Below, piece after piece: positions 395 through 6,631 of a stretch of DNA of 64,000 nt. The DNA lies in NCBI RefSeq assembly GCF_016903815.1, contig NZ_CP069973.1; one strand, given 5' to 3'. The DNA comes from Escherichia coli (GTDB lineage: Bacteria > Pseudomonadota > Gammaproteobacteria > Enterobacterales > Enterobacteriaceae). The position numbers were made by a program, and so were the translations under genes. The number at the start of each line of letters is the position of its first letter. Within the stretch, counting starts at the first letter, position 1. The notes under the pieces were generated by a model, which worked only from the letters and a program-made list of their open reading frames with translations, ran no database searches and was not told where the DNA came from.

Positions 395-2500
395 CTAGCC
401 ACTTATCTTCTCTTGCCGAGTAAACATTGGCAAATAATGCTTTAATGTGTTTCTAAACACTCTGACGACCTCTGGGTCACTCCATTCGATAACACCGTCA
501 TCAACCAGATTAAGCACTGCTGCGGCGTGCTCAGAAGGTGTGGGAGCCGGTAACGAAGTATCACCACCAGTGAGCTTTCCACAGTTATTGACAGGACTCC
601 GAGGCGCGGCGATGCCGCTTTTTAAAGTCAAAGGCTCAACGACCGGAACTTTCGGCACAATGCGCCAGTCCGTCGTTCTGGTGATATGAATATGACGCGC
701 GCCGAGATGCGGCGCGTAAATGCCGACCACTCTCTCGACTTCTTCCTCGTACTCGTTAACGTCATCCGACGGGCTACGGGCAACCCTGACAGTCTGACAA
801 TCGCGCGGGACATTTGCCCCACCCTGCGCGCTGATATACAACGCAAAATCACCACTGTCTGCGGCAGCGCGAGCAGCCTCGACGCGTTCGTCAAACTCAT
901 CAGCAATACTGACGCCGCGAGGCAATTTGCGTAGTTCACGGTAAGCCCCCATTGTCGGCAGTCCAACCGTTTTAAATTGCGGGATGCGCCACGTTGACGC
1001 CCATGCAGTAACAGCCGCGGCAGTATCTTTCAGAGGTCTGCCGGTATCGTTATCGAGCTGACCATCCAGTGCATAGCCGTCGATGTTTTTTGAGATGTAT
1101 TTCGCGATATACCCCGCAGCACCGCCCCGGTTAAGGTGTTTTGCCTGAAAACGGTTTCGCGCGGCTCCTCTTTCGTCGCCATCCTCTTTGAGCGCATAGC
1201 GACGCATGATTTCGATAATCTGGTTACGCTGGCGCGGATTACAAAAAAGCATCATATGCCAGTGCGGCGTTCCGTCGTGGTGTGGCTCGACGACACGCAA
1301 ACCGTAGACCTGTAAATCATTATCCTTGAATGCCGTGCGCATCAGGCTCCAGATACGGCAGAGATAACGCTGCGCATCCTTTGGATTAAATGCCTCATCG
1401 TTCCAGCCGTGATTTAGCTGGACGGTTTTACTTTCGCCTTTTCTGACCTGACGTGTCGGGTGATACTTTGACGGCGCGGTCAGCGTGATAAACATCCCCA
1501 CATCACCCTCTGCTGCGGCGTAACGCTCAATACCGGCAATGGTGTTCATCAGCTCCATCCGGCGAATTTCAGGATTAGAAATACTGCCCATCACCTTACT
1601 GATAAGGTCGATGCGCTCGCCGGTTTCCCTGTTTTCGAGATCACACGATTTAAGAAATTCCAGATTTGCCTGGCGGCGTGCACGCACATCACGAATGGCA
1701 TGTTTACTGGCATAAGGAGAACGGTCTTTATTGACCTCCCCGACAGCAATCAGTAACGCCTCATGCCAGCGCATACGCTGGCCTTTAAGCTGATGAGTCC
1801 ACCACTCATCGTTAAACAGACGGGCAATGGCAGAATATGCCTGCCTCGTGGTCATCTGCCCTTTACGGTATTTTTTCCAGTAGAGAGGGGATATATTGAA
1901 AGCACGTGCAGCGCCAGCAACATGACCATAGAGGTGAGCCTGCGCCTCATCCGTAAACAGCGATTCTTTTTCGCCATGCGCATCCACCCAGGCATCGCTG
2001 AGTTCCTCATACATCATGAAAAGCTGCGATGAGATACGGGCAGCAAACTTTTTCAGCTCCTTGTCATTCATTCCCGGCAGGCGCGCATAGTGGTCACGCT
2101 CTGCCAGAAACAGTAACGACGCGTCGGTGTTCATTTCATGGCGCTGATTCACACGCTCAATGCGCGGCCATAAACGGCGCTGAAAAGTGGATGTGAGGAA
2201 ATAAAACCCGTGCACCGGGCTTTTATTGCGCCGGATGTAGTCATAGCGTGAAGTAAACAGCGAACGCAAAAAGTAAGGCAGGCGGTTAATCGTGGATAAA
2301 ACACCTTGCACCTGACGCATCTCGTCACGTGTAAGGGGTCTTTCGCGCCCGACAGCCTCGCGTGGCGCGCTCCATGCATAAGCACCGGTAAACGTCTTAC
2401 CGGTGCCTGCAGCAAATGCTGACGGAGGGACAAAACGCCCGGAGGCTTTAATGGCCATATGAGCCAAAAGCCTCTGAACAACGCTTGCTGAGTTGCTCAA
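395..2500 (-). CDS. P2 gpA-like replication initiation protein (701 aa)
   Basis: Large ORF at the distal end of the cox-B-A early operon; size and position as for P2 gene A. Confidence 0.7.
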   Translation of the reverse strand: MSNSASVVQRLLAHMAIKASGRFVPPSAFAAGTGKTFTGAYAWSAPREAVGRERPLTRDEMRQVQGVLSTINRLPYFLRSLFTSRYDYIRRNKSPVHGFYFLTSTFQRRLWPRIERVNQRHEMNTDASLLFLAERDHYARLPGMNDKELKKFAARISSQLFMMYEELSDAWVDAHGEKESLFTDEAQAHLYGHVAGAARAFNISPLYWKKYRKGQMTTRQAYSAIARLFNDEWWTHQLKGQRMRWHEALLIAVGEVNKDRSPYASKHAIRDVRARRQANLEFLKSCDLENRETGERIDLISKVMGSISNPEIRRMELMNTIAGIERYAAAEGDVGMFITLTAPSKYHPTRQVRKGESKTVQLNHGWNDEAFNPKDAQRYLCRIWSLMRTAFKDNDLQVYGLRVVEPHHDGTPHWHMMLFCNPRQRNQIIEIMRRYALKEDGDERGAARNRFQAKHLNRGGAAGYIAKYISKNIDGYALDGQLDNDTGRPLKDTAAAVTAWASTWRIPQFKTVGLPTMGAYRELRKLPRGVSIADEFDERVEAARAAADSGDFALYISAQGGANVPRDCQTVRVARSPSDDVNEYEEEVERVVGIYAPHLGARHIHITRTTDWRIVPKVPVVEPLTLKSGIAAPRSPVNNCGKLTGGDTSLPAPTPSEHAAAVLNLVDDGVIEWSDPEVVRVFRNTLKHYLPMFTRQEKISG

Positions 2501-3533: not shown

Positions 3534-4034
3534 TTAATGCAGATATTGCTCTGGTTTTACCGATGTCAGAATTGTCGGTGCATACTCAAACAGACTGAAT
3601 AATTCACGTAATGCACGGAATAAAGCTTCACGCCAGTAACATGATTCTTCATTAATTCGCCAGTATGGCTGGTTAAATTCTTTTTCTGTCAGTCGTGCGT
3701 GCATAAATAAAGTGCGGCGCTGACTGACAGTTAAAAAGCTAATATATGCATACTCACTTGCACCGACCTGACGGCGTTTTGAGAATGCCCCACGCAATTC
3801 ATCAATTGCACAAACCAGCCGTTCACGTTCGACGTCGTTCATTTCTTCAAAACGCATCGTTGCGTGACGTTGTTTTAACTGCGCATGAAAGCAAACTGTT
3901 AGCCGTTCGCGCTCCATCATCTGATTATAATAATCACATGTCTCCTGCCAGCGAGGAACGGCAAGATGCTTACCAATTATCCGGCGCATAGTTGCTGGCT
4001 GTTTTTCAACGAGATTGAGCGTCATCACTGTCAT
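3534..4034 (-). CDS. P2 gpB-like replication protein (166 aa)
   Basis: Exact size and position of P2 gene B between orf78-like and orf80-like. Confidence 0.6.
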   Translation of the reverse strand: MTVMTLNLVEKQPATMRRIIGKHLAVPRWQETCDYYNQMMERERLTVCFHAQLKQRHATMRFEEMNDVERERLVCAIDELRGAFSKRRQVGASEYAYISFLTVSQRRTLFMHARLTEKEFNQPYWRINEESCYWREALFRALRELFSLFEYAPTILTSVKPEQYLH

Positions 4035-4225
4035 TTCCAGCCCCTCCGGCTTTTCAGAAAGGTCAGAGCCTTCTTTAACGGACTCTGTTTTTTGGTGCGG
4101 ATAATGATTCCCTTGCGTCCCTTCCCGTGGGTGATGGTGAAGTCAATCGCCCTGGGGCTTTCGTTACGCAATAACTGAGCAATACAACGAGGCTCATTCA
4201 TACGGTTCTCCTTAACGTGGTTCAC
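4031..4225 (-). CDS. Small phage early protein (orf78 position)
   Basis: 64-aa ORF (56 aa from an internal Met) between cox and B. Confidence 0.35.
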   Translation of the reverse strand: MNHVKENRMNEPRCIAQLLRNESPRAIDFTITHGKGRKGIIIRTKKQSPLKKALTFLKSRRGWK

Positions 4226-4487
4226 CGAGACCTAACCACATCAACCAGCCGTCACGAATCTCTTTAGGACGGCTTTCATAAGCCAGTTTTAGTCCGTTAT
4301 TCCATGCCGGAATGTATACCCAATATTCACCAGCACGCCCCGATACTGACTGAGGGTCAGTAATCTCAATAACTGGTAATTTCCCTTTCTCAATCATGCC
4401 CCTTACAGCTCTTGGAGTTTTACCAATGAGTTTTGCAAACTCCTGATAAGGCACGGCATCAGTCACGCTTACAAGCTGTCTATTCAT
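4212..4487 (-). CDS. cox: Cox-like excisionase / transcriptional regulator (91 aa)
   Basis: First gene of the leftward early operon, divergent from the C repressor; 91 aa as for P2 Cox. Confidence 0.6.
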   Translation of the reverse strand: MNRQLVSVTDAVPYQEFAKLIGKTPRAVRGMIEKGKLPVIEITDPQSVSGRAGEYWVYIPAWNNGLKLAYESRPKEIRDGWLMWLGLGEPR

Positions 4488-4608
4488 CTGCTACGATTCT
4501 CCCTTAGTGCTTCTAATGGCTCCTAATGGCTAATTATTGCCTAAAAGGATAACTCCAGAAGCACAACATTTCACACCATCAGCAAGAAATTACGCAATCG
4601 GAGTAATT
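4488..4608. promoter_or_regulatory. Divergent early/repressor promoter region (lysis-lysogeny switch) with direct-repeat operator candidate
   Basis: 121-nt gap between divergent cox and C; direct repeat CTAATGGC at 4513..4520 and 4523..4530, one helical turn apart. Confidence 0.45.
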
Positions 4609-4908
4609 ATGTCAATAGACGTTTCGGAGAAGTTGAAGCTAATCCGTGAATCTGAAAGGTTAAACCGTAAAGAATTCAGTGAATTAACTGGTGTAGCCTA
4701 CAGCTCACTTTCGAGCTATGAGAGCCGGTCAAAAAACGCTGGAGTTGAAGCCATAATGAAGGTCTTACAACATCCCAGATTTACTAAATATACTTTGTGG
4801 TTCATGACTGATCAGGTAGCTCCAGAAGCCGGGCAAATTGCGCCCGCTCTCGCACACTTTGGGCAAAACGAAACAACGTCGCCCCACTCCGGTCAAAAGA
4901 CTGGTTAA
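4609..4908 (+). CDS. C: C-type immunity repressor (99 aa from internal Met; track ORF starts at 4537)
   Basis: MSIDVSEKLKLIRESERLNRKEFSELTGVAYSSLSSYE has an HTH-like segment; size and position as P2 C immediately upstream of int. Confidence 0.6.
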   Translation: MSIDVSEKLKLIRESERLNRKEFSELTGVAYSSLSSYESRSKNAGVEAIMKVLQHPRFTKYTLWFMTDQVAPEAGQIAPALAHFGQNETTSPHSGQKTG

Positions 4909-5023
4909 CAATTTATCGTGAATATATTCATCACAAGTGCCTACTATTGGTGGCTAAATTTCAGCCACCACGAAAAAAGCGATTAGTAGTAGCAAAAAAA
5001 AGTACCACTCGGAGGGTTTTCTG

Positions 5024-6037
5024 ATGGCAATCAAAAAACTCGATGATGGTCGATATGAAGTGGACATTCGCCCTACTGGACGTAACGGAAAACGCATCCG
5101 TAGGAAGTTTGATAAGAAAAGCGAAGCTGTCGCTTTCGAAAAATACACGTTGTACAACCACCACAATAAAGAATGGCTATCAAAACCAACAGACAAACGA
5201 CGTCTGTCGGAACTGACACAGATCTGGTGGGATTTAAAGGGTAAACACGAAGAGCATGGGAAATCTAATCTTGGAAAAATTGAAATCTTCACAAAAATAA
5301 CGAATGACCCATGCGCATTTCAAATCACGAAATCCCTTATCAGCCAGTACTGCGCCACCCGAAGAAGTCAGGGTATTAAACCTTCGAGTATCAATCGTGA
5401 TTTAACATGTATTAGCGGCATGTTTACAGCCCTGATTGAAGCGGAGTTATTCTTTGGTGAGCACCCTATCAGAGGGACAAAGAGGCTTAAGGAGGAAAAA
5501 CCAGAAACAGGCTATCTCACACAGGAAGAAATTGCCTTACTGCTTGCAGCACTTGACGGCGACAATAAAAAGATTGCGATTCTTTGCCTGAGTACAGGAG
5601 CACGTTGGGGAGAAGCAGCTCGTTTGAAAGCAGAAAATATCATCCATAACCGCGTCACGTTTGTTAAAACGAAAACAAACAAACCACGCACCGTCCCGAT
5701 CTCAGAGGCTGTTGCCAAAATGATCGCGGATAACAAACGAGGTTTTTTATTCCCTGATGCTGATTACCCTCGCTTCAGACGAACAATGAAAGCAATAAAA
5801 CCGGATTTGCCAACGGGGCAAGCCACACATGCACTAAGGCACAGCTTTGCCACTCATTTCATGATTAATGGAGGAAGTATTATCACGCTACAACGGATAC
5901 TAGGTCACACGCGGATTGAGCAAACTATGGTTTACGCTCATTTTGCGCCAGAGTACCTTCAGGACGCCATTTCTCTTAATCCGCTAAGAGGTGGTACTGA
6001 AGCCGAGAGTGTCCACACAGTGTCCACAGTAGAGTAA
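5024..6037 (+). CDS. int: Tyrosine recombinase, P2-type integrase (337 aa)
   Basis: C-terminal HALRHSFATHF...LGHTRIEQTMVYAHF carries the R/H-x-x-R/Y catalytic signature; 337 aa as P2 Int. Confidence 0.9.
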   Translation: MAIKKLDDGRYEVDIRPTGRNGKRIRRKFDKKSEAVAFEKYTLYNHHNKEWLSKPTDKRRLSELTQIWWDLKGKHEEHGKSNLGKIEIFTKITNDPCAFQITKSLISQYCATRRSQGIKPSSINRDLTCISGMFTALIEAELFFGEHPIRGTKRLKEEKPETGYLTQEEIALLLAALDGDNKKIAILCLSTGARWGEAARLKAENIIHNRVTFVKTKTNKPRTVPISEAVAKMIADNKRGFLFPDADYPRFRRTMKAIKPDLPTGQATHALRHSFATHFMINGGSIITLQRILGHTRIEQTMVYAHFAPEYLQDAISLNPLRGGTEAESVHTVSTVE

Positions 6038-6116
6038 CGTTTAAGGGCTTTCAGTGGTAATTTATGCCGCTCAAACCCGCATTGTACCGTTGAAAGCCCC
6101 TACTGGTGACACCCTA

Positions 6117-6143
6117 AATCTCCCTTACACGGGCTTATTTTTT
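6117..6143. other. Putative P2-type attachment site core (prophage/host junction)
   Basis: AATCTCCCTTACACGGGCTTATTTTTT is the reverse complement of the 27-bp P2 att core as I recall it (AAAAAATAAGCCCGTGTAAGGGAGATT); 80 nt past the int stop. Confidence 0.55.
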
Positions 6144-6313
6144 GTGCATAAACCATAGAGACGGATTGATCCCAGGTGACCGTCTTCCATTGACCACATC
6201 GATAGAATCTCCCTTCATAGCACGATGCCTTTCACGTAACGGCATCGTGCTCGCACAGGTTCCGGCTAAGCACAACCAGAACGCGCATGTTTGACGCTTA
6301 CCAAAAAATATTC

Positions 6314-6631
6314 TCACTCTCCACATTTGAATGTCAGACGAGCGACGCCATGTAATCCTGCACCTTCTGTCTTCAGGTCAACTATCTGCATTTTTTTGCC
6401 CTGAGTAACACAGAAATGAGCTGCATCATTTTTTACTATATTTTCTGCACCAGATATTCTGCCCCTGGCTAAAGAAGCTTCGGCTTCGGTGTAGTATTGG
6501 TTATCGAGTTTACGCTGAATATTACTTTTATATGCAAGACCAAATTTACCGATACTTGTCTCATCATTATGTACAGCACACCCAGACATAAGAAAAACAC
6601 TAATTAATGATATAGCAGCTATCTTTTTCAT
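6314..6631 (-). CDS. yegR: Small lipoprotein YegR (105 aa)
   Basis: MKKIAAISLISVFLMSGC signal peptide with lipobox; track ORF extends to 6691. Confidence 0.7.
   Translation of the reverse strand: MKKIAAISLISVFLMSGCAVHNDETSIGKFGLAYKSNIQRKLDNQYYTEAEASLARGRISGAENIVKNDAAHFCVTQGKKMQIVDLKTEGAGLHGVARLTFKCGE

Follow-up and report, generated by a model that had tools for sequence, protein, structure and literature searches.

C operators have been mapped in P2, WPhi and P2 Hy dis. In P2, half-sites with a length of 8 bp lie 22 bp apart, flanking the Pe -10 hexamer, and in WPhi they are 10 bp long and 34 bp apart, again flanking the Pe -10 hexamer (PMC1904268). The half-sites of P2 Hy dis measure 8 bp, have their centres 26 bp apart and flank the Pe -35 hexamer, with a natural point mutation in O2 (PMC1904268). 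The known C operators sit on Pe -10 or -35, next to or inside the start of C (PMC1904268). The annotated P2 record (AF063097) has O1 and O2 (ATCTAAAC) 22 bp apart, the Pe -10 and -35 hexamers against the C start codon, and the Pc -35 and -10 hexamers within ~45 nt of the cox start. The Pe and Pc transcripts of P2 overlap by ~35 nt.

Cox reads a different kind of site. The cox-box consensus is TTAAA(G/C)NC(A/C), with 10-11 bp between starts, and in P2 the boxes overlap the -10 and -35 hexamers of Pc (PMC3936717). Cox wraps the P2 Pc DNA, its footprints cover Pc, and the promoter is thereby shut off (PMC3936717). A spacing of direct repeats by one helical turn is a general hallmark of recombination directionality factors.

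The window, by which we mean the whole 64-kb stretch of Escherichia coli DNA that was analysed, contains a switch of this type. Its genes and spacer are as follows.

4212-4487, minus strand: cox, first gene of the early (lytic) operon; Pfam Phage_Cox (4.3e-42), PDB 4lhf (1e-50).
4488-4608, no strand assigned: cox-C spacer of 121 nt with convergent Pc and Pe, aligned to the annotated P2 switch.
4609-4908, plus strand: C, 99 aa; immunity repressor, probably of the P2 Hy dis class; Pfam HTH_3.
5024-6037, plus strand: int, an intact P2-type tyrosine integrase; Pfam Int_N and Phage_integrase; ~97% nucleotide identity to P2 int.

The start codon of cox occupies 4485-4487 (CAT on the plus strand) and the C ATG 4609-4611, so that the divergent arrangement with 121 nt between the two genes, as described in the earlier note, is borne out. 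The same holds for its description of a compact P2-type switch with an intact int, in view of the Pfam and PDB matches and of the gene order cox (-), C (+), int (+), which is that of P2. By its sequence, the locus is recognisable as the end of a P2-like prophage, beside yegR. An Rfam scan of 3800-6400 returned no RNA family.

Cox of the window shares 82% amino acid identity with P2 Cox and would act both as the Pc repressor and as the excisionase. The Cox proteins of the window and of E. coli B have T24-P25, and P2 Cox has S24-T25. Residue 25 has been given as threonine in P2 Cox and Hy dis Cox alike (PMC3936717). What is said there of Hy dis (Thr) and of WPhi (Pro) accords with residue 24 and not with 25, which looks like an off-by-one in the comparison, and E33 agrees.

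The C protein has the traits of a P2-type repressor, namely a length of ~100 aa, an N-terminal HTH and a conserved C-terminal dimerisation region, and the P2 C structures in the PDB (2xcj and 2l49) match it over its full length (2.5e-39). It is 65% identical to P2 C, with a nearly identical C-terminal half (residues 61-99) and a diverged N-terminal DNA-binding half. The C proteins of P2 and Hy dis have been reported to share 63% identity (PMC1904268). Primer A3-44, a Hy dis-specific EMSA primer that served to amplify the Hy dis operator (PMC1904268), matches the window exactly at 4644-4659, inside the diverged part of C. The prophage of E. coli B occupies the same chromosomal site (yegR, yegS, gatR, gatD), with a C that is 100% identical and a spacer that differs by 1 nt. 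Three comparisons point to the Hy dis class, namely the exact primer match, the 65% identity next to the published 63%, and a C identical to that of the E. coli B prophage. Together with the operator and the Cox array discussed below, they make it likely that this switch belongs to the P2 Hy dis immunity class and that the P2-like prophage of E. coli B is one and the same element.

P2 Hy dis is said to have come from recombination of P2 with the E. coli B prophage, an account reportedly given by Cohen in 1959, and the Hy dis region is presumably the region of that prophage. The developmental switch of bacteriophage P2 Hy dis was reportedly the subject of a study by Renberg-Eriksson et al. in 2001 (Virology 290:199). 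Experimental mapping of the Hy dis operator and promoters dates from 2001-2007. In the protein collection searched, the cluster names of C and Cox are generic ("Bacteriophage P2 C-like protein") and none names Hy dis. The switch occurs at >=99% identity in 348 of 5426 complete E. coli genomes (~6%). Three of the 350 places with the switch are on plasmids, including the 216-kb KPC plasmid pEC316_KPC (NZ_CP018956.1, 23590-23910), and a Hy dis-type P2 prophage or a fragment of one is thus present on resistance plasmids.

The C operator was sought at the C end of the spacer, where the following features were placed.

4598-4605, no strand assigned: proximal C half-site candidate TCGGAGTA, in the spacer of Pe; it covers -11 to -4 relative to the C ATG, exactly as O1 does in P2, and so falls between the -35 and -10 hexamers.
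4624-4631, no strand assigned: distal C half-site candidate TCGGAGAA, on the upstream side of Pe -35; it falls in codons 6-8 of C, outside the interval of the earlier note.
4610-4615, minus strand: Pe -35 hexamer TTGACA (reverse complement of TGTCAA), overlapping the C start; it agrees with the annotated P2 Pe -35 (L001 1892-1897) both in sequence and in its placement with respect to the C ATG.
4587-4592, minus strand: inferred Pe -10 candidate TAATTT, 17 bp from the -35, a spacing as in P2 Pe (TTGACA-17-TAGTAT).

Direct repeats were scanned as 8-mers with at most one mismatch, and the scan recovers the known operators, that is, ATCTAAAC at 22 bp in P2 and GTCACCAATA at 34 bp in WPhi. Applied to this region of the window, it gives one single pair at 26 bp, TCGGAGTA and TCGGAGAA. 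The motif TCGGAG(T/A)A has no occurrence in the 64 kb besides these two half-sites. The pair brackets the TTGACA at 4610-4615 and displays all the published features of the Hy dis operator, including the one natural mismatch. We therefore assign the TCGGAG(T/A)A pair as the candidate C operator, the identification of the half-sites resting on their fit to a verbal description.

Some features of the pair call for a cautious reading. The proximal half-site includes the Shine-Dalgarno GGAG of C and the distal one falls in conserved Ser-Glu-Lys codons; the similarity between them could in part be due to translation or coding constraints. If the 26-bp spacing is not taken as prior knowledge, such a pair is not unusual, as an 11-mer with at most 2 mismatches at 15-40 bp spacing appears in 26% of shuffles. 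A consensus promoter and terminator scan of 4380-4720 found nothing and called neither Pe nor Pc. The promoters were placed by homology to P2 because both the Pe -10 (TAATTT) and Pc fall below the threshold of that scan. A different Pe -10, the minus-strand TAGTGT created by the T4577 allele of E. coli B, was considered and rejected, since it lies 30 nt from the -35.

The direct repeat to which the earlier note had drawn attention lies at the other end of the spacer, together with the candidate Pc.

4513-4521 and 4523-4531, plus strand: the two copies of CTAATGGCT, with a 10-bp period and a 1-nt gap between the 9-mers.
4508-4547, minus strand: four-unit, 10-bp-phased array, a putative Cox operator that would cover Pc, with positional homology to the P2 cox-boxes.
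4532-4537, plus strand: inferred Pc -10 candidate AATTAT, aligning with the P2 Pc -10 TATAAT (L001 1814-1819); the -35 would lie at ~4510-4517, in the first repeat unit.

The repeat had been given as CTAATGGC (8 nt) spaced 10 bp apart. It is real: the octamer is found at 4513-4520 and 4523-4530, the exact match extends to 9 nt rather than 8 (CTAATGGCT), and the 10 bp are counted from start to start. The window holds just two copies of CTAATGGCT, both here, and once the flanking letters are included, GCTTCTAATGGCT and GCTCCTAATGGCT share 12 of 13 positions. When the 121-nt spacer was shuffled 5000 times with its dinucleotides preserved, 0.3% of the shuffles contained an exact 8-mer as a direct repeat spaced by 10-11 bp, and 1.0% contained an exact 9-mer spaced by 8-40 bp. 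The repeat is thus confirmed and unlikely to be due to chance (p about 0.003-0.01).

The earlier note took the two CTAATGGC copies as the half-sites of the C operator. That P2-type C proteins bind direct and not inverted repeats (PMC1904268) speaks for this reading, as does the exact, non-random nature of the repeat. The geometry, however, argues against it. The period is 10 bp, as opposed to 22, 26 and 34 bp in the three mapped operators, and a complete symmetric dimer, covering two consecutive major grooves, is believed to occupy each half-site, so that two dimers would clash at 10 bp. The repeat moreover lies over Pc, at a distance of ~60-100 bp from the hexamers of Pe, which C has to block, and published work locates the Hy dis operator at Pe -35 (PMC1904268). 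Finally, P2 and a Klebsiella phage, with C recognition regions that differ, have conserved the array, whereas true operators vary by class. We regard it as very improbable that the two copies are C half-sites. What stands of the earlier proposal is the expectation of a direct-repeat operator for C, but the operator itself had been misassigned to a repeat with a 10-bp period, over Pc, at the cox end; between 70 and 110 bp separate that repeat from the C half-site pair.

A closer look at the surroundings of the repeat reveals that the CTAATGGCT tandem is the best-conserved part of a longer array. On the plus strand, the four units start at 4508, 4518, 4528 and 4538 and read TGCTTCTAAT, GGCTCCTAAT, GGCTAATTAT and TGCCTAAAAG. 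Scored on the minus (cox-sense) strand, the frame homologous to that of P2 (the plus strand was also tried), the boxes are TTAGAAGCA (4516-4508), TTAGGAGCC (4526-4518), TAATTAGCC (4536-4528) and TTTTAGGCA (4546-4538), which agree with the cox-box consensus at 6/8, 5/8, 4/8 and 6/8 positions, respectively, and are individually near background. The P2 units at the homologous positions are TGCGTTTAAT, GTCTTATAAT and GCCTTTTAGT, and the cox-sense boxes of P2 score 8/8 (TTAAACGCA), 6/8 (TATAAGACA) and 7/8 (TAAAAGGCA). As a four-box chain with 10-11 bp spacing, read on the minus strand from 4546, the array scores 21/32, a value reached by 0.03% of window positions and modestly significant after correction for the positions tested within the switch. 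The same chain score amounts to 22 at the P2 switch and 21-22 at the P2 att site. Four boxes are clear in the window, and at least six cox-boxes per site have been described for P2 (PMC3936717).

A distance of 26-44 nt separates the repeat from the cox ATG. In the alignment to the annotated P2 promoter, the repeat corresponds to the -35/-10 region of Pc, and the array overlaps the -35 and -10 of Pc. The Klebsiella phage ST16-OXA48phi5.4, whose Cox is 88% and whose C only 78% identical to the proteins of the window, has TTAATTGC, TTAATGGG and TTAATTGC at 10 bp in the same place, with a chain score of 25. A homologous 10-bp array is consequently present in P2, the window and ST16-OXA48phi5.4 despite three different C proteins. 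Given the positional homology of the array to the P2 cox-boxes, and its occurrence in a Klebsiella phage whose C is another one, the CTAATGGCT repeat most likely belongs to a Cox operator over Pc and not to the C operator. The Cox protein of the window would be expected to read P2-like boxes, since the att Cox site is identical to that of P2 and since Hy dis Cox complements a cox3 mutant of P2.

Two further explanations of the repeat deserve consideration. It might be mere promoter sequence, or a neutral 10-bp tandem duplication in Pc without a dedicated protein. Slippage easily yields short tandem duplications, the repeat overlaps the putative Pc -35 and spacer, and single boxes match the cox-box consensus weakly (5/8), all of which would be compatible with a neutral origin. 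Against it, the 10-bp phasing spans four units rather than two copies, the array recurs in place in P2, where Cox footprints lie over Pc, and in the Klebsiella phage, and the repeat shows neither substitution nor change in copy number in any of seven natural variants (0/7). In addition, Cox must repress Pc somewhere, and the spacer offers no better phased array. We judge a neutral repeat to be unlikely.

The repeat might also serve as a secondary C site for autoregulation of Pc, or as the site of a host factor. P2 C regulates Pc both up and down, and the location could serve such a function. Yet the autoregulation in P2 is explained by C at the Pe operator, close to polymerase at Pc, and neither P2 nor WPhi revealed a perfect secondary site for C (PMC1904268). 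Likewise, there is no TCGGAG-like motif near 4513-4531, and a second C site or a host-factor site appears highly unlikely here. A Cox operator over Pc remains our preferred reading of the array.

The direct repeats at the two ends of the spacer were also compared in other phages.

L-413C: repeat at 10 bp at the cox end; CCTATATA at 34 bp at the C end.
WPhi: repeat at 20 bp at the cox end; GTCACCAATA at 34 bp at the C end.
pro483: repeat at 10 bp at the cox end; no clear pair found at the C end.

Among phages with a P2-type Cox, short-period repeats thus persist across C classes, and the long-spaced repeats differ by C class. In switches of the P2 kind, whether a repeat has a period of one helical turn or of two to three indicates the protein that reads it.

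In the seven natural variants, all substitutions in the spacer fall in 4563-4595, and none of them affects the array, the half-sites or the promoter hexamers. This 33-nt stretch corresponds to the region in which the Pe and Pc transcripts overlap. The C that the window has at 4577 was seen in none of these other class genomes, which have T in 7 of 7 cases. A second 10-bp repeat, CACAACAT/CACACCAT at 4562-4579, was rejected as an element, being weak and freely changed in the natural variants. The spacer further contains a perfect 8-nt inverted repeat, GTGCTTCT and AGAAGCAC at 4507-4514 and 4557-4564, with arms 42 nt apart. It brackets Pc and the start of the overlap region, and its AAGCAC is also conserved in P2; it may be due to chance.

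These features suggest a scheme for the working of the switch, in which the promoter hexamers, start sites and protein binding are predicted. Pc on the plus strand (-10 at ~4532-4537) would drive co-transcription of C and int, and Pe on the minus strand (-35 at 4610-4615, -10 at 4587-4592) would drive cox and the replication genes. By analogy with P2, transcription would start near 4580 for Pe and near 4544 for Pc. In the lysogen, C made from Pc would occupy the half-sites, and cox and the replication genes would be blocked: C dimers on TCGGAGTA and TCGGAGAA, 26 bp apart around the Pe -35, are proposed to shut Pe and thereby to confer immunity to phages of the same class. Superinfection immunity had been put forward in the earlier note, and it is plausible given a C that is 100% identical to that of the E. 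coli B prophage.

Once Pe fires, Cox would most likely assemble as a head-to-tail oligomer on the array at 4508-4547, with one protomer per helical turn. Cox on this array, which extends from the Pc -35 to +1, would turn Pc off, so that synthesis of C and Int stops and lytic growth ensues. At the att site, Cox would direct excision. The corrected map would accordingly have the C operator at the start of C, partly in the open reading frame, and the 10-bp tandem on the Cox/Pc side.

The attachment site lies downstream of int.

6036-6099, no strand assigned: att-side Cox binding region, identical to P2 attP; Cox binding is annotated there in the P2 record.
6116-6143, plus strand: att core at the int-side prophage-host junction, with the same sequence as in P2.

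Cox-box hits fall in the att-side Cox site, which is among the top 10 of the window for phased cox-box chains, and a second copy of the att core, with 1 mismatch, is found at the ogr end in the sequence-identical genome L006. The adjoining segment at 6144-6205, supposedly the bacterial side, is still similar to the attP P arm of P2 (GGATT..TGGT.AC...CATTGACCACATCGA). Apart from a deletion of 16 bp, this sequence is also that of E. coli B. An older P2-like remnant at the integration site is suggested by this. In the interval from the att core to yegR, positions 6209-6241 contain an inverted repeat that is perfect over 11 bp (AGCACGATGCC...GGCATCGTGCT); no T-run follows it, and it is kept in E. 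coli B with a changed loop.

Cox of this class may read two cox-box "dialects", with different thresholds for excision and for the shut-off of Pc. The Pc array has drifted to TTAG(A/G)AGC(A/C), with the unusually perfect CTAATGGCT tandem, and the att site is identical to that of P2; changes in the recognition region of Cox comprise T24, P25, R26, G30 and E33. Such a dual reading is a speculative idea that we think will probably not hold; if true, it would amount to a class-specific retuning of the switch.

An intact switch together with an intact int had also led to the suggestion that the prophage may still be inducible. P2-type prophages are classically non-inducible. The C protein has an HTH domain only and no peptidase S24 or autocleavage domain (Pfam), which does not agree with an SOS-inducible, RecA-cleavable repressor, and a Tum-like, LexA-controlled antirepressor as in phage 186 would lie outside the window. 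A further point concerns gene A.

395-2458, minus strand: gene A (replication endonuclease), 3'-truncated and divergent in its tail; it encodes ~687 aa, and its E. coli B counterpart 760 aa.

Gene A lacks ~73 C-terminal residues. In strain 7/2, which is 100% identical over positions 1-1500 of the window, it is annotated as a pseudogene, "missing C-terminus" (PGAP); the prophage of this strain extends from ogrK to int with a full late gene set and both att cores. The truncated A is a candidate for the "inactivating lesion elsewhere" in the prophage that the earlier note had named as evidence against its own proposal. Production of phage is questionable because gene A is truncated. With a C that lacks an autocleavage domain and a gene A that lacks its C-terminus, inducibility of the prophage is doubtful. 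On the side of positions 1-394, gene A is followed by cargo in a variable hotspot between A and the portal gene; the cargo genes code for a DNA cytosine methyltransferase, an O-methyltransferase and an ATP-binding protein, and methyltransferase cargo likewise stands after gene A in strain 7/2.

Compared with other arrays of directionality factors, the putative Cox operator is of a familiar kind. The cox-boxes of P2 Cox, the Apl sites of phage 186 at pR-pL and the X1-X1.5-X2 sites of lambda Xis are likewise direct repeats one helical turn apart; their place is over or between lytic and lysogenic promoters that face each other, and they occur again at the attachment site. The array of the window differs from them in that Cox binding is predicted and in its per-box consensus match of 4-6/8.

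With the P2 switch (AF063097), the window shares the gene order, the convergent Pe and Pc and a spacer of 114-121 nt. Common to both are also the Pe -35 TTGACA on the C start, the proximal half-site at -11 to -4 and the 10-bp cox-box array over Pc, and identity or near-identity extends to int, the att core and the att Cox site. In contrast, the half-sites are ATCTAAAC in P2 and TCGGAG(T/A)A in the window. The second half-site of P2 lies 22 bp downstream, flanking the -10, whereas that of the window lies 26 bp upstream, flanking the -35. The N-terminal DNA-binding half of C has diverged, so that the two phages would be heteroimmune, and the cox-boxes of the window are further from the consensus than those of P2.

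The closest likeness is to P2 Hy dis, with an exact primer match, ~65% identity to P2 C and the published operator geometry, as well as a Cox with E33 and P2-like specificity and an att Cox site identical to that of P2. At 4577 the window carries C, as opposed to T in E. coli B and in the six further members of the class that were examined, and we detected no functional difference from the P2 Hy dis switch. Beyond correct annotation, the significance of such a common prophage switch is slight. The switch is an ordinary and already known one, whose candidate operator and Cox array follow the published architecture.
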